From the NCBI GenBank assembly GCA_016867415.1, contig VGJO01000001.1, positions 7,823-71,822 on the forward strand: a stretch of DNA of 64,000 bases, read 5' to 3'. The translations under genes were made by a program, and so were the position numbers. Source of the stretch: Candidatus Harrisonbacteria bacterium. Its GTDB lineage: Bacteria; Patescibacteriota; Minisyncoccia; UBA6257; UBA11618. The notes under the pieces are model-generated. The model searched no databases. It had not been told where the DNA came from and saw nothing but the letters and a program-made list of their open reading frames with translations. Of this stretch, positions 3,024-53,081 are shown piece by piece. Positions within the stretch are counted from its first letter, which is position 1, and every line of letters begins with the position of its first letter.

Positions 3024-3063
3024 ACTGAATTTTCTTATAATACTGCACTTGGTAAAGACATAA

Positions 3064-3180
3064 GCACAGGATTTTTGAGAAGATTTTGGATTTTCTTTCT
3101 GAGTACGCATCGGAGCATACTAGTGCTCAAGTATGTGAGAAGCGAACGGAAGAAAAAAATTAAAAATCTTCCAAAATACC
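3064..3180 (+). repeat. Family-1 intergenic structured repeat, copy A
   Basis: Shares with the other copies the 5' AGGATTTTTGAGAAG, an internal CTGAGTAC...CGGAGCATACT-hairpin-AGTATGTGAG...AACGGAAGAAAAAAAT, and the 3' CCAAAATACC. The 5' GAAGATTTT is complementary to the 3' AAAATCTTC. Confidence 0.6.
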
Positions 3181-3538: not shown

Positions 3539-3858
3539 TAATATAGCAATGAAAGTCTACGACCTTTATTATTATTCTCATTATACCAAATCCTCCTCAC
3601 CTCGTTGTGGAAAAAATATTATTTATAAAAAAATCACATGTCGTCACGCGAAGTAATTTTGAACTTCTTTTTGTTCTTCTTTCCTAAAAAGGTACTAAGA
3701 GCTACCTGCGGGAAGTTTATGAGAAACATCCTTAGAAAAAAAGATGGGCCTCCACTACTTCTAGATTAAAAAAAGAAGAAAGAGAAGCATCAGCTAAGAT
3801 GGGGTCGGCTACACAAGCAAAAGAAGGCAAAAGTATGAGCACGTCGCAAACAGAGAAA

Positions 3859-6485: not shown

Positions 6486-6737
6486 TGGATAAAGATTAAA
6501 AATCTTTTACTCAGCCCGCCTACTTCACCGCCCCCAACTAATTCTGGCATCACAAGAAATTATCACCTTACCCCTGAATGACCTTCTGGAGAAAAGAAGT
6601 ATGGCTTTTTTATGGTGTTGTTTTATCCTCTTGTTCCCCAAAAACAACACCATGAAAAATTCTTTTTGAGGACTGAATGAAAGTCCGCAGGGACTTTCAT
6701 GTGTCATGAAGGGGTAAGGTGAGAATTTCAAAAAAAC
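6486..6737 (+). repeat. Family-X structured element, copy X1 (candidate ncRNA, ~250 nt)
   Basis: Shares with X2 and X3 the blocks CTTCTGGAGAAAAGAAG.ATGG, a long hairpin ATGGTGTTGTTTT...AAAACAACACCAT, TCATGAAGGGG.AAG, and a terminal TTCAAAAAAA. Confidence 0.45.
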
Positions 6738-6781
6738 TATCCACCCGCGAAAGAAGAATAAAAAAAGGCTTTCGCCCTTTT

Positions 6782-9253
6782 TTATTCTTCTTTTCCGTTA
6801 ATTTCTTTTAAGCATATAGACCCGATAATATAATCTGCGTCGTTCAACGACATTAGTCGGACTCCCTGCGTCGCCCGCGACGCCTCCCGTACGCTCTCAA
6901 GGGTCGTCCGAATCATCTGCCCCTTCGCCGAGAGCACAAAAAGATCCTTCTCCTCGGTAATAAGATGCGCCGAAATCAATTTTCCCGTCTTATTGGTAAT
7001 CTTCGCCGTTAAGATTCCCGAGCCGCCTCTTCCTTGCGTCTTATACTCGCTCATCCTTGTCTTCTTCCCATACCCCTTATCCATAATCACGAGAAACTTG
7101 GCTTTCTTAGCTGCTTCTTTGTCAATCACAGTGAGCGAGCTCACCATGTCTCCCGCATGAAGCCGGATCCCCGTCACTCCCGCCGCTACTCTCCCCATTG
7201 CCCGGATATCATCCTCCGAAAATCGGATCGCCTGCCCAAGCACGGTTGTGAGCACCACCTCATCCTTCCCTGTTGATCGCTTCACAAAGTGGAGCATATC
7301 CCCCTCATGGAGACTGATCGCGATGATTCCGCCCCGCCGCACGTTGGCAAAATCCGACAACGCCGTCTTCTTTACGACTCCTTTTTCCGTCGTCATCACA
7401 AGATACCCATCTGATTCCTGATCCGAGTAAGAGACTAAAGCCGTCACCTCCTCTGAAGAGGGAATCTCAAGAAAGCTCTGAATTGCTTTTCCTTTTGAAG
7501 TCCGGAGCGCTACTGGAATCTCCCACACTTTGGTCTGAAAGACTCGTCCGCGGCTCGTAAAGAAAAGGATATTATCGTGCGTATTTGCGTGCGTGATATG
7601 TGAGATGAAGTCCTCCTCCGCTACCTCTGAGCCTATAAGCCCCTTCCCGCCCCGATGCTGTGATTTATATGTGTCCGGTGCTAGCCGCTTGATATACCCT
7701 CCGCGAGAAAGAGTGATAATCGCCTCCTCCTCCGCAATCAAGTCTGCCTCCGAAAATTCCTTAAGCCCCGACATGACGACCTTGGTCCGCCGTGCATCGG
7801 CAAATCGCTCCTTAAGATCCATCATCTCATCCTTGATGAGCGCCAAAATCTTTTTCTCACTTTTCAAAAGCGCTTCCAAGTCCGCAATCAGCTGATGCTT
7901 TTCCTTAAGTTCATCAATAATCTTTTGTACCTCGAGATTTGCGAGTGTTGAAAGCCGCATTTCAAGAATCGCCCCCGCCTGAATTTCCGTAAAGTCAAAC
8001 TTCTTCATGAGGTTAATACTCGCTTCCTCCCGATCCGCAGATTTCTTAATAGTCTTAATCACCGCGTCAATGTCATCGAGCGCCCGCTTGAGTCCCTCGA
8101 GAATATGAGCTCGCTCCTTTGCTTTTTTGAGATCAAACTCCGCCCGCCTGCGTACGACCACTTTCCTATGGCTAATATGCGCACCGATAATATCAAGAAG
8201 AGTGTGAATCCGTGGCTGGATCCCTTCATGAAGGGCCAGCATATTAAAGTGAAAACTCTTCTGCAAATCCGTGTGCTTATAAAGAAGATTGAGGATCTTC
8301 TGTGGCACCGCATCGCGCTTCAATTCAATCACGATCCGCACGCCATCCTTGTCTGTCTCATTACGCACATCCCGGATGCCCTCAATCTTCTTTTCATTGA
8401 CGAGCTCCGCGATCTTTATGAGAAAATCCGAAATATTCGTCTGATAGGGAAATTCCGAAATAATAATCTCCGAGTCCTCAATCTCCGTCACGCCACGGCA
8501 GACTACTGATCCGCGACCAGTGAGATACGCCTGCTGAATGTCTTTTTTATTGTAAATAATGCCTCCTGTAGGGAAATCTGGTCCCTTTACATATTGAAGT
8601 AAATCCTCGCCGGTACACTCTGGGTTTTCGATCATGTGTATAGTGGCATCGATTACTTCACCAAGATTGTGGGGCGGAATAGAGGTAGCCATTCCGACCG
8701 CAATACCAATACCACCGTTTATTAAAAGATTTGGCACCTTCGCTGGCAAAACTCTCGGCTCCTTGAGTCGTCCGTCATAATTATCTACCCAATCAACCGT
8801 CTCTTTCTCAATATCAATCAAGAGCTCCTCTGAGATCTTGCTCATCTTGCACTCGGTATACCGCATAGCGGCCGCGGCATCACCCTCTGGAGAGCCCCAA
8901 TTGCCCTGACCTACAAGAAGGGGATAACGTAGGGAAAAATCCTGCACCATTCTCGTTATCGTGTCATACACTGCCTGATCCCCATGTGGGTGATAGCTTC
9001 CAAGTACTTCTCCAACTACATTTGCCGACTTACGCAACTTGGCCGTGGAAGTAATCCCGAGACCCCACATCGCCCACAAGACTCTCCGGTGCACTGGCTT
9101 CATTCCATCTCGCACGTCAGGAAGCGCCCGCGAAACAATCACCGACATTGCATAGTCAAGATATGACTGTTTAAGCTCATCCGTAATCTCTCTTGGTTCA
9201 ATCCGTCCAAGAATAATCCCTTCCTCCTGCCCTTTTTCCTTCTTAATCGCCAT
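6782..9253 (-). CDS. gyrA: DNA gyrase subunit A
   Basis: 823 aa; N-terminal ...YAMSVIVSRALPDVRDGMKPVHRR... with the active-site Tyr region, and C-terminal beta-pinwheel repeats. No gyrB is adjacent. Confidence 0.95.
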   Translation of the reverse strand: MAIKKEKGQEEGIILGRIEPREITDELKQSYLDYAMSVIVSRALPDVRDGMKPVHRRVLWAMWGLGITSTAKLRKSANVVGEVLGSYHPHGDQAVYDTITRMVQDFSLRYPLLVGQGNWGSPEGDAAAAMRYTECKMSKISEELLIDIEKETVDWVDNYDGRLKEPRVLPAKVPNLLINGGIGIAVGMATSIPPHNLGEVIDATIHMIENPECTGEDLLQYVKGPDFPTGGIIYNKKDIQQAYLTGRGSVVCRGVTEIEDSEIIISEFPYQTNISDFLIKIAELVNEKKIEGIRDVRNETDKDGVRIVIELKRDAVPQKILNLLYKHTDLQKSFHFNMLALHEGIQPRIHTLLDIIGAHISHRKVVVRRRAEFDLKKAKERAHILEGLKRALDDIDAVIKTIKKSADREEASINLMKKFDFTEIQAGAILEMRLSTLANLEVQKIIDELKEKHQLIADLEALLKSEKKILALIKDEMMDLKERFADARRTKVVMSGLKEFSEADLIAEEEAIITLSRGGYIKRLAPDTYKSQHRGGKGLIGSEVAEEDFISHITHANTHDNILFFTSRGRVFQTKVWEIPVALRTSKGKAIQSFLEIPSSEEVTALVSYSDQESDGYLVMTTEKGVVKKTALSDFANVRRGGIIAISLHEGDMLHFVKRSTGKDEVVLTTVLGQAIRFSEDDIRAMGRVAAGVTGIRLHAGDMVSSLTVIDKEAAKKAKFLVIMDKGYGKKTRMSEYKTQGRGGSGILTAKITNKTGKLISAHLITEEKDLFVLSAKGQMIRTTLESVREASRATQGVRLMSLNDADYIIGSICLKEINGKEE

Positions 9254-10569: not shown

Positions 10570-11250
10570 AAAGTAAGAAAGATTTGCATCTAAAATACTT
10601 AAAAGCCTCATAAAAAAACTCCTTGCTCTCATAAAGAAAACAAGGAGTAATTCTATACATTCCGGGCAGAAGTATTTCTACTTCAATTAGATGAGAAAGT
10701 AAGAAAACTCGAAACACCCCTCTCACCCTAAACCCACATTTTTTGAACTAAGGAAGGGAAGACCAGAGTCCAAGAAAAACCTGCCGCGAGGCGAGTCGTT
10801 TCAATAAGAAAGGGTCATTCTTATCTATCCCTCGGAAGACCACTCTACGCCTTACATCGGGAAGTATATAGAATTTTTCACCAAAGAACTAAAAACACCC
10901 TTACTATTCTATAATTATTTTATTTAAAAAGTAAAAATGTACTATTTATAAAGGTTATTGACTATATTGAGAGATATGATATATTTATAAAGTTACTTGG
11001 AATCATGTAGCCGGGTTGGGGTGCTCAACTTCCTCTTTTAATAAAGGATATCCGTGTTGATCCGCGATCACCCGTAGTCGTTCCTTGGTTTCTCCCTCTT
11101 TTTTTTTGAATTCACCCAGCGCCCGAAATGGTGCCTCGGCCAAATAGTCAAATAAACAAAGATTTTGGTCGAGAGAATGAAGGCAGACCATGAAGATTCG
11201 TCGTCTCCTCATTCCTCCGTAGTACTTGACTGCGGACCCCCTCTTACCCT

Positions 11251-11296
11251 CCGCTTCACGTATTCCCCTCAAAGGAACGTGAAGCGGTATTTTTTT
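11251..11296 (+). terminator. Strong intrinsic terminator CCGCTTCACGT-(loop)-ACGTGAAGCGG followed by TTTTTTT
   Basis: 11-bp perfect stem plus T-run, ~680 bp from the nearest upstream plus-strand CDS. This implies an unannotated short transcript ending here. Confidence 0.6.
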
Positions 11297-11412
11297 AGCA
11301 AAAATCCCTTGCAAAACCCCCGAAAATACTCTATAATAAGCCCAACTTCTTTTTCTTTAGAAAATTTTCATAACAAACCTAATAAAAGAATAAAGAAGCC
11401 AATTACAAACCA

Positions 11413-12772: not shown

Positions 12773-12975
12773 TTCTTTTTTTCTTCAGTAGATCTGTTTC
12801 ACCCAGGAATTTTTCCCTTCAGAAAAATTCCTGCCCCGTGACCGTTTTTTCAAGCTATTAATTTTCCCTTTTAAAACCTGAAAGAATTTTCATTAAAAAA
12901 AAATTATAAAATAATATCTGCATTACCTCCCTCATTTAAAAACATAAAAAAGGGGAAATAATGCGCGTACACATG

Positions 12976-13096
12976 CGAAGTAATTTTGGAGGACTTTTCG
13001 ATTTTATTTCTGAGCAGCGAACGGAACATACTGGAGCCAAGTCTGTGAGCACGCAACGCAAGAAAAAAATCGAAAAGAGCCCAAAAGTACGAGCAC
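12976..13096 (+). repeat. Family-1 structured repeat, copy B
   Basis: The 5' CTTTTCGATTT is perfectly complementary to the 3' AAATCGAAAAG. The internal CTGAGCAGCGAACGG / AACATACT hairpin / GTGAGCACGCAACGC block is conserved. Confidence 0.6.
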
Positions 13097-13103
13097 TAAA
13101 TAT

Positions 13104-13955
13104 ATGATAAAAAATCGTGAACAGAGAGTTGGAATTTTTATTGATATCCAAAACCTCTACCACTCCTCAAAAAACCTCTACTCTGCAAGAGTAAATTATA
13201 AAGAACTCATGGACACGCTTGTCGCAGATAGGAAGCTCGTCCGGGCTATTGGCTATGTCGTCAAGACCGAATCCACTCTTGGCGAATCCTCCTTCTTTGA
13301 TGCCTTGGTAAAGTCCGGTATTGATCTTCGGATGAAAGATATCCAGATCTTCCCTGATGGCATGAAAAAAGCCGACTGGGATGTCGGCCTCGCTATCGAT
13401 GCCGTCCGCTTAAGTAACGCCCTCGACGTCGTCGTCCTCGTGACCGGCGATGGCGACTTCGTCCCACTCGTCGAGTATCTCCGCTGGGGCCTTGGTAAGA
13501 CCGTTGAGGTCGCCGCTTTTGGTCGCAGCGCTTCAAGTAAGCTCAAAGAATCCGCCGACGAATTTATTAATATGGATGAGTTAAACAAAGTCGTCATGCG
13601 CCGACCTGATATCTTTAATAGCAGAAACAATAACAACCAAAACCAATCTTTTGATCGTTTTCCAAGACGCACAAGCTCTCTCCGAAATGAAGGAGGGGAT
13701 CTTTCTTTTGCTAAATCAAAATATCGGGAAGACATCTCTCGCCTTTCAAGAGATGATGAAGAGTATGTGAGAAAGATAGAGACCGGAGAAGCCTCTCAAG
13801 ATGCGGGAAATAAGAAAAAACCCGCCCGCCGTATCCGGGGAAAAAGTGCTCTCACAGAAAAAAAGTCTGAAGCTAAAAATCCCATCCGCACCCGCAAGAA
13901 AATAAATGAAGATAAAAAAACCAACGAATCATATCTCAATGAACGCAACAACTAA
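13104..13955 (+). CDS. NYN-domain (LabA-like) protein with a long basic, low-complexity C-terminal tail
   Basis: RVGIFIDIQNLY...VVLVTGDGDF.PLVEYLR..GK.VEV... is the LabA/NYN PIN-like fold. The tail is K/R/N-rich and overlaps the pnp start. Confidence 0.75.
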   Translation: MIKNREQRVGIFIDIQNLYHSSKNLYSARVNYKELMDTLVADRKLVRAIGYVVKTESTLGESSFFDALVKSGIDLRMKDIQIFPDGMKKADWDVGLAIDAVRLSNALDVVVLVTGDGDFVPLVEYLRWGLGKTVEVAAFGRSASSKLKESADEFINMDELNKVVMRRPDIFNSRNNNNQNQSFDRFPRRTSSLRNEGGDLSFAKSKYREDISRLSRDDEEYVRKIETGEASQDAGNKKKPARRIRGKSALTEKKSEAKNPIRTRKKINEDKKTNESYLNERNN

Positions 13956-17880: not shown

Positions 17881-17909
17881 GTCATTCCGGCCTCCGAGCC
17901 GGAATCCAG
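17881..17909. repeat. REP-like palindromic unit GTCATTCCGG-CCTCCGAG-CCGGAATCCAG immediately after the stop codon
   Basis: Exact copy of the 9378-9406 unit. Confidence 0.6.
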
Positions 17910-18002
17910 TACATTTTCTATCAAATTAATTTTAAAAAGAAAAAAGCGGCGACCTTACAGCCACCGCTTGTTTGAGATTTTTCCGTCTTCCCGTGATGCG
18001 CC

Positions 18003-18716
18003 TCAGGTCGCGACGGTATCATTAGCTACAGCAGTTGCCGAAGCCACTTCTTCCGTCTCAGCGTCCTGAGCTTCTTTCGCCGCCTTGAGAATATCCCGCC
18101 GTGTGCAAGGCGAAATATGCTCCTTCTTGCGCAATCCTCGCACCTGGGAGACTCGGAGACCAGCGATTTTGGCGATCATCGTGTCCGGCAACTTGCCCAA
18201 GAACGGCCGAATCTTCTTTTCGATATCGACCACCTCCGGAAATCCGTAGATAATCCCAATCGAAGTAAACGCATTCCGAAGCGTCCCGTGATGCACGATG
18301 GTGCTGTGATAGAGCGCCGGATCCTCCCGCCTGAAAGCGTCAGGATCCAACACCTCTTTCCCACGCAATCGAGCGAGCGACTGGCTAGCGCAAAAAAAGG
18401 GCACTTCCATCGCCGACACCAACTCTTGCCACACAAGCTTCGGCGGAAAGCGATGGCCACATCTCGTACAAGTAGTGTTAAGATCGTTCGGATCATCCAC
18501 AAATCCTTTGAGGATCTCGGCCGGCGTCAAAGACCGATTGCATTTGGGACAAAGCGCCTGCGGCCGAAACTTCTCATGACCATGGATAGCGCCCACCAAT
18601 TCCAATCGCATACTGAGCATCTGCGCCTGGCAGAGCATCCGCTGTGCCTGCGTCATCCGCTGTGCCTGCGTCATCCGCTGTTCCATTGAATGGTGCTGAG
18701 AAAAAGTAAGCATCAT
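18003..18716 (-). CDS. Hypothetical protein with N-terminal QRMTQA tandem repeats, a CxxC...CxxC zinc-ribbon and a C-terminal HTH-like segment (237 aa); GC-rich relative to its surroundings
   Basis: CPKCNRS...CTRCGHRF; C-terminal ...TMIAKIAGLRVSQVRGLRKK... The locally elevated GC and an overlapping 190-aa plus-strand ORF make the frame assignment uncertain. Confidence 0.4.
   Translation of the reverse strand: MMLTFSQHHSMEQRMTQAQRMTQAQRMLCQAQMLSMRLELVGAIHGHEKFRPQALCPKCNRSLTPAEILKGFVDDPNDLNTTCTRCGHRFPPKLVWQELVSAMEVPFFCASQSLARLRGKEVLDPDAFRREDPALYHSTIVHHGTLRNAFTSIGIIYGFPEVVDIEKKIRPFLGKLPDTMIAKIAGLRVSQVRGLRKKEHISPCTRRDILKAAKEAQDAETEEVASATAVANDTVAT
18646..18691. repeat. 18-bp tandem repeat x2.5 (CATCCGCTGTGCCTGCGT)
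   Basis: Direct reading; encodes QRMTQAQRMTQAQRM on the minus strand. Confidence 0.85.
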
Positions 18717-18819
18717 AATTCAAATTCCTTCACAAAGAAGAAGAGGGGAGAAACCAACTTTTCAAAGTCCTTTCAGACTAACACACCTGTTATAGCACAC
18801 TAAAAATCCAATGTCAATA

Positions 18820-18838
18820 TTTTGTCAACTTGACAAAA
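18820..18838. promoter_or_regulatory. Operator-like palindrome TTTTGTCAA-C-TTGACAAAA
   Basis: 9-bp perfect inverted arms ~25 bp upstream of the -35 element below. Being symmetric, it could serve either divergent transcript. Confidence 0.4.
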
Positions 18839-18860
18839 ATAGATAAAAACCAATAGGGTA

Positions 18861-18888
18861 TTGACATAGGCTGTGGATATGCTATAAT
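18861..18888 (+). promoter_or_regulatory. Near-consensus sigma70 promoter: TTGACA, 16-nt spacer, TATAAT
   Basis: Exact -35 and -10 hexamers read directly. Confidence 0.55.
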
Positions 18889-18895
18889 AGTTTTA

Positions 18896-19500
18896 GAACT
18901 TAGAAATAAGACGCTTCTTACCTAATCCTAAAAAGCTTTCGCAGATCTACTCTTGAGATCTTTTTAGGATTAGGTAAGTTAGCGTAAAGACGAATGCTTG
19001 CTTTCCTGAATCTTTTCTTGAACCTACTTGTCACTGGTATTAGGCAACCGTTCTGGATAAGTCGATGAACTTATTCTCCCTGAGCGCGTCTCAGGCAAGA
19101 GAATACCCGTTCGCGGGGTACGGTGAAGACCATCTGTTCGGTTATAAGCTCCGCCAGGACCGACTGGTTAAGCGACAAGGCTTGAGGAAACTCGTACGCT
19201 ACTTGAATATTCTTTTTGTAAGTGGAACCGGTTTCACTTCAAAAAGGAGAGGTCAAGCAAAGCGCGGGTACAGCCGTTCTCCCCAGCAGGGTACAGAACG
19301 TACAAAGAAGTGGGAATCCTCAGAGAAAAATGCAGATCCCTCTGGATCTGCTAATACTCAATCCACTTTCAAAGGTGTGAAAGCACCATCCCAAAAGCTC
19401 ATCACGTGAGAGCATGGGAAAAGGGCACTGCCAAGCGTCGTCTTCTAGCGAAAGCTAGGCGAGCCGGTTTTGTGGGTAATCCCCAAAACCGGTTTTTTTA
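18896..19500 (+). ncRNA. Candidate ~600-nt structured non-coding RNA (family not identified)
   Basis: Starts just downstream of the consensus promoter. An 18-bp perfect stem CTTACCTAATCCTAAAAA/TTTTTAGGATTAGGTAAG sits near the 5' end, and GC content is higher than the genome background. It ends in the intrinsic terminator CCGGTTTTGTGGG-TAAT-CCCCAAAACCGG plus TTTTTTT. The only ORF (114 aa, 19065-19409) has no SD and a low-complexity composition. Confidence 0.35.
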
Positions 19501-19564
19501 TACTTAATTTTGTACAAAAATTATTTCAAGAAAAATATTCAAGTTCAACGTTGCGTTACGCCAA

Positions 19565-19683
19565 GCGCAGGATTTTTTCTTCAGGGCTAGGAGAAAGCGA
19601 GGCTTGCGAGGAAGCATACGTAAGCTGTATGTTGACGAGCAAACGGAGCTTTCGACAACGCCCTGGAGGAAAAAGACAAGCTC
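19565..19683 (+). repeat. Family-1 variant repeat, copy G
   Basis: 5' GCGCAGGATTTTTTCTTCAGGGCTAGGAGAAAG...GTATGTTGACGAGCAAACGGAGC...GCCCTGGAGGAAAAAGACAAGC. The closing stem is CAGGGC/GCCCTG. Confidence 0.5.
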
Positions 19684-19684
19684 A

Positions 19685-21700
19685 TCAATCTTTCTTATCA
19701 GCAGCCTTTCGGGGATCGGTCCACGTCGCATTGTCACATTGCGGATATCTACTACATCCAAAAAATAACCTCCTCCCTTTCTTCGTAAATCTCTTCATCA
19801 TCTCTCCCTCCCCGCACTTATCACACTTCACTCCCGTACTCCTATTATCTGCCTCCGGCTCAATCACCGCTCCCGATTCAGTTTTTACTTCTCCAGTAAT
19901 CTTCTTCGCATTCTTGCACTCCGGAAATCCTGAGCACGCTAAAAATTTTCCATACCGCCCCGCACGCACCACCATTTTTTTCCCGCACTTATCACAAATC
20001 TCATTTGTCTCAATTGGCTCCGGCCGCTCTGCCCGCGCTACCGACTCATACTTTTCCGCTAGATTCTTCGCAAACGGATCATAAAAATCTTTCAGGAGTT
20101 TTTTCCAAGCAATCTTTTTCTCCGCGACGTCATCCAAACCTTCCTCCATCCCTGCTGTAAAACCGACATCCACTATAGTCGGGAAGTGTTCTTCAAGAAG
20201 CGTTGTTACTTTTTCCCCGATCTCCGTCGGGTGAAATCGCCGCTCAATCTTCTCCACGTAGCCTCGCGCCTCAATCGTGCTGATCGTCGGCGCATAGGTC
20301 GACGGTCGCCCCACCCCATTCTCTTCCAAAGCTTTAATAAGAGTCGCTTCACTGTAGCGCGCCGCCGGCTCGGTGAAGTGTTCCTCATACTTCACTTCCT
20401 TTACATCCATCTCCTCCTTTTCTTCCAAAGTTGGCAAAATTACATCCTCTGTCTTTGATGGGTATACCTTAAGAAATCCCGGGAAAAGCATCTGGCTCCC
20501 AGTCGTCTTCAAGATGTGCGGCCCCGCCTCAAAAAGAATCGTCATCTGGTTAAATCGGGCCGGCGGCATCTGTGACGCCAAAAACCTCTTACTAATAAGG
20601 TCATACACCTTCCGCATCGAAGGCTCAAGCGCCTCAATATCCGCCGCGCTCCGATTGAGATGCGTCGGCCGGATCGCCTCGTGCGCTTCCTGCGCCCCTT
20701 TTGACTTCGTCGCGAATCGCCGCGGCGCGTCAGCCGCATACTCCGCTCCCAACTCTTTTTCTAAATATTCCTTCGCCATTGAAAGCGCTTCCGAGGCGAT
20801 ATTTACCGAGTCCGTTCTCATGTAAGTGATCCAACCATTTTCATACAACTTCTGCGCCGCAAACATTGTCTTCTTTGCCGCGTAGCCGAGCTTATTCGCC
20901 GCTGTCTGCGTAAGCGTGCTCGTAGTAAAAGGCGGTGACGGATGCCGTTTCACCTCTTTTTGGGTAATTTCTTTGACTCGTACCGTCGCCACCTTGATAT
21001 CGTCTACAATTTTCTTAGCCGCCGCTTCATCCTGCAGCTCCAGTCGATCCACCTGCTTTCCATACGCTGAAAAAAGCTCCGCAAGGCACGTTGCGGCCGG
21101 ATCTGTCTTCTTCGTAAGCTCCGCCACCACCGAAAAATATCTCGTCGGCACAAACGCCCGAATCTCCCGCTCCCGATCCACAATCAGCCGAAGAGTTACC
21201 GACTGCACCCGTCCCGCCGAGAGTCCTCGCGCCACCTTCTGCCATAAAAACGGCGAGAGTTTATATCCCACGATTCTATCCAAAATTCTTCGGGCTTGCT
21301 GAGCATCTACAAGGCTCATATCGATCCGCCGTGGCGACTTGAGCGCCTCCTGGATCGCTCGCTCCGTGATCTCATGAAAGACAATTCTCTCCGTCTTCTC
21401 TGCATCCAAGCCTAAAGCCGCGGCAAGATGCCAGGCAATCGCTTCTCCCTCTCGGTCTTCGTCAGTGGCAAGCACTACCGCGTCCGCTTTACCCGCCTCT
21501 TTTTTGAGCTTCTTCACCGTCTCTCGCGCTTTAGCTGGAATCATGTACTTCGGCTCAAAATCATTCTCAAGATCCACCCCGATTTTTGACTTTGGTAAAT
21601 CCCGAATGTGGCCAAAAGACGACAAGAGTTCATACCCCTTACCTAAAAATTTTCCGATCGTCTTTGCCTTTGTCGGACTCTCTACAATAATAAGTTTCAT
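19685..21700 (-). CDS. topA: DNA topoisomerase I
   Basis: TOPRIM N-terminus MKLIIVESPTKAKTI, the active-site Tyr region, and C-terminal C4 zinc ribbons (CDKCGKKM...CSGFPEC; CDKCGEGEM...CSRYPQC). Confidence 0.95.
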   Translation of the reverse strand: MKLIIVESPTKAKTIGKFLGKGYELLSSFGHIRDLPKSKIGVDLENDFEPKYMIPAKARETVKKLKKEAGKADAVVLATDEDREGEAIAWHLAAALGLDAEKTERIVFHEITERAIQEALKSPRRIDMSLVDAQQARRILDRIVGYKLSPFLWQKVARGLSAGRVQSVTLRLIVDREREIRAFVPTRYFSVVAELTKKTDPAATCLAELFSAYGKQVDRLELQDEAAAKKIVDDIKVATVRVKEITQKEVKRHPSPPFTTSTLTQTAANKLGYAAKKTMFAAQKLYENGWITYMRTDSVNIASEALSMAKEYLEKELGAEYAADAPRRFATKSKGAQEAHEAIRPTHLNRSAADIEALEPSMRKVYDLISKRFLASQMPPARFNQMTILFEAGPHILKTTGSQMLFPGFLKVYPSKTEDVILPTLEEKEEMDVKEVKYEEHFTEPAARYSEATLIKALEENGVGRPSTYAPTISTIEARGYVEKIERRFHPTEIGEKVTTLLEEHFPTIVDVGFTAGMEEGLDDVAEKKIAWKKLLKDFYDPFAKNLAEKYESVARAERPEPIETNEICDKCGKKMVVRAGRYGKFLACSGFPECKNAKKITGEVKTESGAVIEPEADNRSTGVKCDKCGEGEMMKRFTKKGRRLFFGCSRYPQCDNATWTDPRKAADKKD

Positions 21701-23451: not shown

Positions 23452-23650
23452 TATGGTCATTCCAGGCTCGACCTAGAATCTATACAAACAAATAATCCTT
23501 CATTTACGTTTTTGATAAAGCAATAGCATCCCCAAGCATAAAAGCCCTAGGATTTTTTTCTTAGTACGAGGAGAAAATACAGTAAAGAAAAATATCCTTT
23601 GCATAAAAGCGAAGTGATGCCAAAATCCCTCTAAATATAACAATGCGTAA

Positions 23651-23770
23651 AGCGCCGGATTTTTGGAGGGCATTTCGTCTTTTCTTCTGAGTATGGGACG
23701 GAGCATACTGTGGAAAGTATGTGAGTACCTAACGGAAGAAAAAAGATAAAATGCACCCCAAAATACCAGC
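23651..23770 (+). repeat. Family-1 structured repeat, copy C (immediately upstream of tRNA-Ile)
   Basis: GCGCCGGATTTTTGGAGGGCATTT...CTGAGTATGGGACGGAGCATACT hairpin GTATGTGAGTACCTAACGGAAGAAAAAAGATAAAATGCACCCCAAAATACCAGCG. The closing stem is GCATTT/AAATGC. Confidence 0.6.
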
Positions 23771-23780
23771 GAAAACCAGA

Positions 23781-23853: not shown

Positions 23854-24009
23854 CAAAATAAAAATACCCGCAAGGGTATTTTTATTTGGCGTGGGAAGGG
23901 TCGGGAAGGGTATTTAATACCCTTCCCGTGTCAGATATATGTGAAACCGAGGGTTTCGCAAAATAAATATCTGCAAAATTTTATTTTTAATATTTCCTTC
24001 CCACGCCCA
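23838..24009. repeat. Copies of the tRNA-Ile 3' end (CCTTCCCACGCC), one inverted at 23888-23899 and one direct at 23996-24009, forming a long hairpin with the tRNA 3' end
   Basis: Direct reading. CCTTCCCACGCCCACAAAATAAAAATACCC-GCAA-GGGTATTTTTATTTGGCGTGGGAAGG is a ~27-bp hairpin, and a second hairpin GGGAAGGGTAT-TTAA-TACCCTTCCC follows. Confidence 0.7.
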
Positions 24010-24206
24010 TATTCCTTATTCCTCTTTTTTCTGATATCTAATAAGACTTGTCCGCTCTCCCGGCATTCCTTTTCTTTGTCCTAAAGGGGAAAAAATACTC
24101 GGCTTCTTATAGCTATTAGCGAAGATGGGTCACTTTTATGTACACAAAAAACAATGTATCGCGACAACGCAGAAAAAAATCGCAAAATCAGTCAAACAAG
24201 CTAGCT

Positions 24207-25160: not shown

Positions 25161-25280
25161 ATATGTAAGGAATGTATCAATAGCTCAGCCATTCTAGCAC
25201 ATCCTAAACCCCTATTGCAAAGCCTAAAAAATAGCAGATTTTCTTCTAGATTTTGCCAATATAAACAGGCGTCTTCAGTT

Positions 25281-25405
25281 CCGAAAAATAATTTTTGATA
25301 AAGTTTCGTGATTCTTTTCGAGCAGCGAGCCGAAAATACATAGCGAACGGTATGCGAGCATACAGCACAGAAAAAACCGTGAAATTTGCCAAAAATACGA
25401 GCGCC
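25281..25405 (+). repeat. Family-1 structured repeat, copy D (5'-divergent), ending 15 nt before the uvrD start
   Basis: TCGAGCAGCGAGCC...CATAGCGAACGGTATGCGAGCATACAGCACAGAAAAAACCGTGAAATTTGCCAAAAATACGAGCGCC. Confidence 0.5.
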
Positions 25406-25419
25406 ATCAAAATCGTACA

Positions 25420-28237: not shown

Positions 28238-28578
28238 AGGAATATTATCGTTCTGGATTTGTCCGCCGTAGCTTTAGCAGAGGCGAGTCATCCTAAACTT
28301 GCTTTACCCCGCTTTAACTTCAACACAAGTGGGATTCAGGATCCAGTAATTCACTTCTGGGAGGTACTTATAAATCCCTTTCCTTTTTCTGTATTTAACA
28401 TAAAAAAACCTTATTCTACCTAAATTATTGAGACTTTCCATCCTCCCTAAAAAGCAAGAGAAATGTCCGACACTGGTTAAAACTTCGGTTTTTTCTGACC
28501 TCCCTCATATCCCTATGAACTTGATCACTCGTGGGGATTTTTATTCTTTAAACAATAAAAAGGCCAGAGCGCAGCGAA

Positions 28579-28906
28579 GGCCCTCCAAAGAGGTGGATCT
28601 TTGTTTTCTAAACAGAGGATAGAAATATCGATTGAGTATAATCGACATTTCTATAAAAAGATTTTCAATCTTTTTATCTCCCCTCCACCCTCTTTTTTTC
28701 ATCACCTCTGAATCTCTACACTGCTAAAGAACCCTCACCCCTTCCATGAGTGACCTTTTGGAGAAAAGAAGCATAGTTTCTTGTAGTGATGTATTACCTG
28801 GATTCATCTCCTCAATACATAGCCATAAAAAATTATTTTCAAAAATTGCATGAAAGTTCGCTGGAACTTTCATGCATCTTGAAGGAAAGAGGTGAAGATT
28901 CTAAAA
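28579..28906 (+). repeat. Family-X structured element, copy X3 (~330 nt), immediately upstream of the T4SS-like cluster
   Basis: GGCCCTCCAAAGAGGTGGATCT, hairpin AAAAGATTTTCAATCTTTTT, CCCCTCCACC, TGGAGAAAAGAAGCATAG, hairpin GCATGAAAGTTCGCTGGAACTTTCATGC, TTGAAGGAAAG, TTCTAAAAAA. Confidence 0.5.
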
Positions 28907-33147: not shown

Positions 33148-33410
33148 AAACCTAACTCGAACAATAACCCCAGCCAATTCACCGACAAAGGCCTCGGCAT
33201 CTAACCATGAAGGCATTATAAGATCATTAAACGTTTTTCTTTTTTGCATTCTTAAATGTACTGGATTCCGGCTCGGTGGCCGGAATGACAATCCCTTCAA
33301 AACACTATATATGCCTTGTCTTGCCATAGCGTACTCACGAAGGAGGAGAGGATTTTACGATTTTCTTTATAAATAAATTAAAAATATAGCCCGTCGCCAA
33401 GCGCAGGATT

Positions 33411-33589
33411 TTTGAGTCGAGTTTACGATTTATTTCTGAGGACAAGCCCGGGAGCACTACTAAGAAAAAGGTATGTCGAAGGTATGGAGTACTCTCCGTA
33501 CCGGAGATCTCGAGTGCTCTCGAGGTGAAGGACTTACTGGAAGAAAAAATCGCAAAATTGGCCAAAAAGACAAGCGCCCTACAAGCTAA
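33411..33589 (+). repeat. Family-1 structured repeat, copy E (carries a ~60-nt internal insertion)
   Basis: GCGCAGGATTTTTGAGTCGAGTTTACGATTTATTTCTGAGGAC......GGAAGAAAAAATCGCAAAATTGGCCAAAAAGACAAGCGCC. CGATTT and AAATCG are complementary. Confidence 0.55.
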
Positions 33590-52900: not shown

Positions 52901-52963
52901 TTCGCTACATTTTTAGACAAGTTTAAATTAGAGGAGGTATTTAAAAATCGTTGCATCACACAT

Positions 52964-53081
52964 GCGCAGGATTTTTGAGAAGAGTTTGGATTTTCTTTAC
53001 GAGTACCGAACGGAGCATGCTCTAAAAGTCTGTGAGTACGGAACACAGTAAAAAAATTCAAAATATTCCAAAAATACAAGC
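52964..53081 (+). repeat. Family-1 structured repeat, copy F (directly upstream of the polA 5'-3' exonuclease ORF)
   Basis: ~85% identical to copy A: GCGCAGGATTTTTGAGAAGAGTTTGGATTTTCTTTACGAGTACCGAACGGAGCATGCT...GTCTGTGAGTACGGAACACAGTAAAAAAATTCAAAATATTCCAAAAATACAAGC. Confidence 0.6.

Follow-up and report, generated by a model that had tools for sequence, protein, structure and literature searches.

Genomic setting of the candidate locus

The window analysed here, a 64-kb stretch of DNA, comes from a metagenome-assembled genome of Candidatus Harrisonbacteria (Patescibacteria/CPR), whose TopA is NCBI entry MBM3281153.1. The candidate RNA locus sits amid housekeeping genes: its left-hand neighbours are, in order, the genes for S1, S15, an NYN-domain protein, PNPase, a membrane protein and a 237-aa Zn-ribbon protein, and on its right follow a convergent topA, dprA, tRNA-Ile, uvrD and ksgA. 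Between the gene for the 237-aa protein and topA lies a gene-free gap of ~970 nt (18717-19684), and the corresponding gap after topA in related Patescibacteria is mostly shorter than 150 nt. Such a lineage-specific gain of sequence would be expected if the segment were neutral or selfish acquired DNA, a reading to which we return below together with the sister-strain data.

The 237-aa Zn-ribbon/helical protein is encoded on the minus strand (18003-18716), divergently from the candidate RNA. Its structural model is confident (pLDDT 86) and retrieves only weak helix-turn-helix matches, with no Nop or Cas fold; the protein belongs to a small conserved CPR family that is not covered by Pfam and lacks clear structural relatives. 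The loci around its eight homologs are unrelated contexts, none of which has a comparable adjacent gap except that of the sister strain. In one lineage (L166/L167, 983-5648) the homolog lies ~2.3 kb from a Ro60/TROVE and vWA gene, the products of which normally partner with Y RNAs. Within the 237-aa gene itself, an 18-nt tandem repeat of 2.6 copies (18636-18681) encodes a QRMTQA repeat, whose copy number differs in the sister strain, where the protein has 231 residues.

A consensus promoter downstream of a perfect palindrome

The gap contains a plus-strand sigma-70 promoter, TTGACA-16-TGcTATAAT (18861..18888), which matches the consensus at 12 of 12 positions and carries an extended -10 element, with TG at 18880-18881. 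It is the single 12/12 match on both strands of the 64-kb window, where the runners-up reach 11/12 and where, by our own estimate, ~0.02 such matches would be expected by chance; an earlier reading made from the sequence alone (hereafter the sequence-only reading) had singled it out as the cleanest promoter, TTGACA-16nt-TATAAT at 18861-18888, and this description is exact. A consensus extended -10 promoter of this kind would be expected to drive high-level RNA synthesis.

The same reading had pointed to a palindrome upstream of the promoter, and we indeed find a perfect 9-1-9 palindrome, TTTTGTCAA-C-TTGACAAAA, at 18820..18838, which is kept in the sister strain and whose 15-nt core occurs once in the window. 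By inspection, it consists of two back-to-back TTGACA hexamers that separate two divergent promoters, those of the RNA and of the 237-aa gene, and could represent either an operator or a pair of -35 boxes. A DNA-binding protein that uses the palindrome would fit the locus; it might control the RNA through this element, and the neighbouring Zn-ribbon/HTH protein is the candidate for such a role. The 19-nt palindrome is also found once in an IMG/VR viral contig (L177, 10916-10934), in an unrelated promoter-like context, and we judge that match to be due to chance.

A strand-specific, highly folded transcript with an intrinsic terminator

The predicted non-coding transcript extends over ~605 nt on the plus strand (18895..19499), its start being placed from the position of the -10 element. 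Close to its 5' end lies a hairpin, H1 (18911..18985), in which 18917-18935 pair with 18960-18978 to give 19 perfect base pairs, prolonged to ~26 bp by an extension through ACGCU/AGCGU at 18911-18985 and enclosing a 24-nt apical part; the perfect opening helix proposed earlier is thus present, at a length of 19 rather than 18 bp. Some 470 nt of further hairpins separate H1 from an intrinsic terminator at 19464..19499, which combines a G+C-rich stem of 12 bp (19464-19476 with 19481-19492, with one bulged U), a UAAU loop and a T7 tail (19493-19499). A consensus terminator scanner missed this element because of the bulge; stem, loop and tail are nevertheless all present, in line with the 'textbook terminator' of the sequence-only reading.

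The terminator ends 185 nt from the stop codon of topA, towards which the transcript runs convergently. This geometry is what would recommend a cis-acting element, either a regulator of topA that works by antisense or convergent transcription, or the long leader of a downstream gene. We consider such a role very unlikely: there is no downstream gene on the plus strand, the topA coding sequence is not overlapped, and three elements set the RNA apart from topA: the terminator, a second hairpin of terminator type (19551-19570) and a further hairpin of ~130 nt. These same elements, namely the Rho-independent terminator, the second terminator-like hairpin and the long hairpin repeat, would rather insulate the convergent gene.

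To quantify folding, we scored 638 stretches of 200 nt that together cover both strands of the whole 64-kb window. Ranks 1 and 2 for over-folding both fall within the candidate transcript on the plus strand, at 18896-19095 (z -9.3) and 19296-19495 (z -8.9) respectively, and the 605-nt transcript as a whole has an MFE z of -8.6 on the plus strand versus -5.6 on the minus strand. Even without H1 and the terminator, the core retains z values of -3.15 (plus) versus -1.36 (minus). Furthermore, GNRA/UUCG tetraloops (GAAA or UUCG) cap 4 of the 13 hairpins predicted on the plus strand, where shuffled sequences yield 0.12 on average and 0 of 60 shuffles reach four; no tetraloop-capped hairpin is found on the minus strand. 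Of the evidence internal to the sequence, this RNA-type signal on one strand is the strongest indication that it is in RNA, and not in DNA, that the fold matters. Selection on DNA palindromes alone would not produce a folding excess and GNRA/UUCG loops on the very strand that carries promoter and terminator, which argues against the hairpins being DNA-level features of acquired sequence. The folding excess is, on the other hand, owed largely to a few long perfect helices, which are equally typical of DNA palindromic elements and of functional RNAs, and the presence of very long perfect helices in both alleles of the site (see below) counts in favour of the neutral or selfish reading.

Elsewhere in the window, other intergenic stretches likewise rank near the top of the 200-nt scan for over-folding, with z values of -5 to -6.6 (28496-28895 on both strands, 23896-24095 and 6496-6895); none of these three regions has an Rfam match at the gathering threshold.

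Base composition adds little to this picture. The sequence-only reading took the RNA to be GC-richer than its flanking DNA in an AT-rich genome, which does not hold: at 46.3% G+C, compared with 43.2% for the window and 50.8-54.5% for the flanking genes, the candidate RNA exceeds only the immediately adjacent spacers (17-33%).

Open reading frames within the transcript

Two open reading frames on the plus strand raise the question of coding capacity: one of 114 aa (19065..19409) and, overlapping its start by ATGA, one of 24 aa (18994-19068), which is hydrophobic (GRAVY 1.0). The sequence-only reading had noted that no ORF of the region is preceded by a Shine-Dalgarno (SD) sequence. This is true and carries no weight, since only 2 of the 32 long ORFs of the window have an SD-like motif upstream and most starts are preceded by A/T-rich sequence; translation initiation in this organism appears, from its sequence, to proceed largely without SD pairing, so that a missing SD is uninformative here.

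Taken at face value, the ATGA coupling of the two ORFs, the normality of SD-less genes (2/32 with SD) and the fact that both the JGI and the Logan gene callers do call the 114-aa ORF would be consistent with a strain-specific coding cassette, in which the 24-aa peptide is coupled to the basic 114-aa product as a toxin/immunity-like or type I toxin-like pair on a structured mRNA; strain variability, too, is typical of orphan accessory genes. Most of the evidence points the other way, and we rate such a cassette as improbable. Conservation of the 114-aa ORF at the protein level had been named as the observation that would speak against an RNA, and what we find is an ORF with no homologs and with codon usage that is not gene-like. 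Among 5.8 billion cluster sequences it matches only itself, and HMMER, run in full against 1.84 billion representatives, returns three weak, partial matches to long unrelated proteins and no full-length relative; across 15 billion proteins in all, no homolog emerges. The ORF belongs to no Pfam, NCBIfam or PHROG family. When the window's long genes are cut into in-frame chunks of 114 codons, the codon score of these chunks averages 0.35 per codon and in every case exceeds that of the ORF, whose -0.04 lies beyond what real genes show and within the upper tail of the off-frame distribution. AlphaFold (AF2) run without an alignment gives a pLDDT of 60 and no confident fold. The hydrophobicity of the 24-aa peptide is equalled by 8% of random small ORFs, the sister-strain allele has no comparable ORFs, and the numbering of NCBI accessions leaves a single protein between the 488-aa gene and topA, suggesting that PGAP skipped the ORF. 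On homologs, codon usage, fold and sister allele together, we judge the 114-aa ORF to be probably non-coding. A pseudogene remnant or decayed gene is likewise unlikely, given that six-frame fragments of the block, as of both alleles, have no match in Pfam.

Like the candidate, type I toxin mRNAs are strain-variable, intergenic and highly structured, with a 5' hairpin and a small hydrophobic ORF (here of 24 aa). In contrast to them, the candidate is two to three times the typical length, no antisense promoter of at least 9/12 is present inside it, its peptide is unexceptional in hydrophobicity and the sister-strain allele lacks such an ORF.

Comparison with known RNA families and arrays

A cmscan of the window with all 4227 families of Rfam 15 reports only two tRNAs at the gathering threshold and nothing at the candidate locus, and a permissive scan of 18700-19700 at E<=10 yields only chance miRNA-type hairpin matches to H1 and similar noise. 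The suggestion that the locus might encode RNase P RNA or a member of a large ornate RNA class is therefore not borne out, with neither a match at the gathering threshold nor a real one at E<=10, whereas the exclusion of tmRNA and 6S RNA holds. Specifically, the bacterial type A and B RNase P models (RNaseP_bact_a/b) have no match in the window, nor at E<=10 in 18700-19700. For tmRNA there is no Rfam match, and ARAGORN, too, finds only the two tRNAs in the window. 6S RNA gives no match at E<=10, and its architecture, a ~180-nt irregular hairpin with a central bubble, is not seen in the ~600-nt candidate. OLE, ROOL, GOLLD, HEARO and raiA are absent from the E<=10 results, as they are from a scan of the sister-strain allele at E<=1. 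An ORF-less group II intron was rejected for want of any match to the corresponding Rfam models (Intron_gpII and D1-D4); the likeness of the terminator to domain V is confined to its GAGCCG...CGGUU ends, its loop being UAAU and its bulge lying on the 5' side.

Several of these classes nonetheless share features with the candidate. Large ornate RNAs (OLE, ROOL, GOLLD, raiA, HEARO) likewise measure 350-800 nt and contain many hairpins, some of them GNRA-capped, possess their own promoter and terminator, and are often accessory and patchy in distribution; they differ in that the candidate has no covariance-model match, homologs or conserved core, is dominated in its folding by a few long perfect helices, and has its sequence swapped wholesale between strains. 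Protein-sequestering sRNAs of the CsrB/RsmZ type and 6S RNA similarly combine a strong promoter and an upstream palindrome (cf. the GacA box) with a multi-hairpin body and a Rho-independent terminator, and their sequences, like that of the candidate, are poorly kept between taxa. A CsrA sponge of the CsrB/RsmZ type was rejected, however, as GGA motifs are not enriched: the candidate has 9 versus 9.5 expected, and the sister-strain allele 10 versus 7.7.

Arrays of guide RNAs were considered as well. CPR lineages are known hosts of TIGR arrays, which are composed of variable palindromes that form stem-loops (PMC12045711), and, like CRISPR and TIGR arrays, the candidate would be a non-coding locus that is hypervariable, transcribed and closed by a terminator, here in a CPR genome; it differs from them in lacking repeat-spacer periodicity. 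Tandem Repeats Finder and direct-repeat scans of 18880-19560 detect no periodic unit of a CRISPR, TIGR or ToxI-type array, and for a TIGR-Tas system there is neither a nearby Nop-domain or Cas protein nor any box C/D-flanked dual spacer in large loops.

A known family that has diverged past detection (RNase P RNA, tmRNA, 6S, OLE, ROOL, GOLLD, HEARO or an ORF-less group II intron), or a CRISPR or TIGR guide-RNA array, would be compatible with a size in the range of large ornate RNAs and with the divergence of CPR lineages, which are established TIGR hosts (PMC12045711). Against it stand the complete lack of Rfam matches even at E<=10 with permissive filters and of an ARAGORN tmRNA, the absence of tandem or interspaced periodicity, a neighbouring protein with no Nop or Cas fold and, for an essential housekeeping RNA, its replacement in the sister strain. 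We regard this reading as largely refuted already and grant it hardly any credence.

An unrelated sequence at the same site in a sister strain

The most informative comparison comes from Logan contig L165, which encodes a relative of the 237-aa protein with 96% identity. This contig is 97.2% identical to the window over 17900-18883 and 98.9% identical over 19671-20693; between these flanks lies a strain-variable block of 787 nt (18884..19670), whose counterpart in L165 is 696 nt of sequence that does not align with it. Local alignment of the two blocks gives a z of 0.4 and global alignment a z of 2.95, with 2 of 200 shuffles scoring as well; we accordingly rejected the two alleles as diverged homologs and treat them as unrelated. 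An inversion (inverton) was rejected too, as BLAST on both strands shows that the two blocks are not reverse complements of each other. The fixed sequences on either side can be described by a left anchor, TTGACATAGGCTGTGGATATGCT, and a right anchor, AACGTTGCGYTACGCCA (or the 3' end of topA).

On the left, the shared sequence stops within the promoter: both strains have the -35 element and the spacer, as well as the T at 18883 that begins the -10 element, and the rest of TATAAT belongs to the window allele. In its place L165 has TCTTCT and no recognisable -10 element, so that its allele may not be expressed. In its overall layout, L165 nonetheless parallels the window, with a near-perfect hairpin of ~21 bp that begins at a distance of 30 nt from the junction (27 nt for that of the window), followed by a multi-hairpin core and a 16-bp perfect terminator on the same strand as that of the window. 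The L165 block has a z of -11.4 as a whole, and its core one of -4.85 versus -3.33 on the opposite strand; it contains no same-strand ORF longer than 41 aa and none comparable to those of the window.

Since a strain with 97-99% identical flanks carries unrelated sequence at this site, the locus cannot encode RNase P RNA or any other essential housekeeping RNA; it is accessory, not housekeeping. By the same token, cells can do without the RNA, and the block could be acquired DNA that is neutral. Indeed, the main rival to an RNA gene is that the block is neutral or selfish, either a horizontally exchanged intergenic segment or what is left of a mobile element rich in palindromes (of a MITE-, REP- or Correia-like type), with hairpins that are features of the DNA and a promoter and terminator that are incidental or were carried along by the element. 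The full replacement of the block between nearly identical flanks speaks for this reading, as does the failure to find homologs in any collection searched; we consider it unlikely, if by no means negligible. It would predict traces that are not seen: by inspection, neither terminal inverted repeats nor a target duplication are evident at the junctions, the block is single-copy in the 64-kb window, and no phage, plasmid or IMG/VR sequence matches it.

A synteny set of 160 topA loci from GTDB genomes and JGI metagenomes, with a best TopA identity of 55%, contains no RNA homolog detectable by nhmmer or blastn, and queries with both alleles against phages, plasmids and IMG/VR, including k-mer scans, returned nothing meaningful. 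A search for strain fragments by the TopA C-terminus found only relatives of at most 57% identity, and an exact TopA look-up only contigs that are 100% identical to the window; the window allele has no second copy within the 64 kb. It does recur in seven other contigs from other samples and assemblies, all 100% identical; the source community is JGI 3300020200, and sequencing runs with this allele are SRR7052762, SRR7990525, SRR7990526 and SRR7985589. We thus have two alleles with no informative variation within either, and, with homologs of either allele unfound, there is no support from covariation or conservation for a selected structure. The four short Logan contigs with the window allele (L001-L004) all have their left end at exactly 17881, just past the stop codon of the 488-aa gene, which suggests another assembly-graph branch point, caused by strain variation or a repeat.

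A dispersed hairpin repeat and a second ORF-free unit

Beyond the terminator, the space up to the stop codon of topA is filled by a diverged copy of a ~130-nt long-hairpin repeat on the plus strand (19547..19685), which contains the terminator-like hairpin at 19551-19570. The repeat family, with units of ~125-135 nt, has at least eight copies in the 64 kb, each with its best nhmmer match on the plus strand: 3060-3180, 3641-3742, 12961-13104, 19547-19685, 23646-23771, 25271-25406, 33389-33580 and 52951-53081. A further copy lies on the minus strand of L165 (1005-1150). The consensus reads ...GCGCAGGATTTTTGGAG...CGGAGCATACT...AAGTATGTGAG...GGAAGAAAAAA...CCAAAAxTACGAGCG, every copy opens with a small terminator-like hairpin, and RNAalifold detects compensatory changes in 17 of 30 predicted pairs. 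The family has no Rfam match and could be either REP/MITE-like or an RNA-level element.

One copy of this repeat forms the right border of the strain-variable block, and the contact of the block with a dispersed family of at least eight hairpin copies in 64 kb lends the neutral or selfish reading some support. Palindromic repeats and MITEs (REP/BIME, Correia, RPE) share with the candidate their long near-perfect hairpins, strain-variable presence and intergenic position, and the candidate adjoins a real dispersed family of this kind. The candidate itself differs from such elements, being single-copy in 64 kb and ~600 nt long, with many different hairpins, no TIR or TSD and strand-specific, RNA-type loops. 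That no second copy exists in the 64-kb window or the fetched loci, and that no TIR or TSD was seen at the junctions, speaks against a MITE or REP-like repeat.

At some distance, the window contains a second ORF-free unit (10958-11297), with a promoter-like TTGACT-16-TGaTATATT, ~300 nt of sequence and a strong terminator hairpin at 11250-11297. Its MFE z is -4.2, it has no Rfam match at E<=1, and from its sequence features it is another candidate ncRNA of the same genome.

Discussion

Because promoter, terminator and folding excess all lie on one strand, we read the locus as an independently transcribed, structured ncRNA, and the earlier proposal of a structured ncRNA with its own promoter is upheld by these three features together with the tetraloops. 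On balance, we think it probable that the locus is a stand-alone gene for a ~600-nt, highly structured non-coding RNA specific to one strain lineage of Candidatus Harrisonbacteria. Its promoter would be very strong, and its synthesis would stop efficiently ahead of topA. Among candidates for bacterial stand-alone structured ncRNAs, it would plausibly stand as an orphan without a known family.

As to how such an RNA might work, its hairpins at both ends would stabilise it, and it would then act in trans as a stable RNA, most likely through protein binding rather than translation. The ~26-bp helix of H1 would be long enough to be the target of a dsRNA-binding protein or of RNase III; our guess is that the RNA binds or scaffolds proteins, H1 being either its dsRNA handle or a site for RNase III. 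In the sister strain, the whole block has been swapped for an unrelated sequence with a matching layout of leader, long hairpin, core and terminator.

This parallel layout also allows a more speculative view, which we hold to be rather doubtful: that the site is a hypervariable 'RNA cassette', where strains of one CPR species carry unrelated structured RNAs of ~500-600 nt in one common layout. Equally doubtful are the bounds that such a cassette might have, a fixed -35/palindrome module on one side and the conserved hairpin repeat on the other. We know of no class of hypervariable RNA cassettes. If true, the arrangement would imply diversifying selection on RNA, for instance for strain-specific immunity, decoy or host-interaction functions.

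Small CPR genomes have little space for useless DNA, and in this one no other sequence of the 64 kb has as strong a promoter, or is as over-folded, as the ~970-nt gap without genes; to our knowledge, hardly any work has been done on the non-coding RNAs of CPR/Patescibacteria. Should the block prove non-functional, it would show how exchanged intergenic DNA can come to contain a strong promoter, a terminator and extreme folding scores, and would call for caution in RNA-gene screens that rely on such scores. Should the RNA be real, it would be a large structured RNA without relatives, which, given its perfect sigma-70 consensus promoter, could be expressed and probed directly in E. coli, and the two unrelated alleles would amount to a natural swap experiment.
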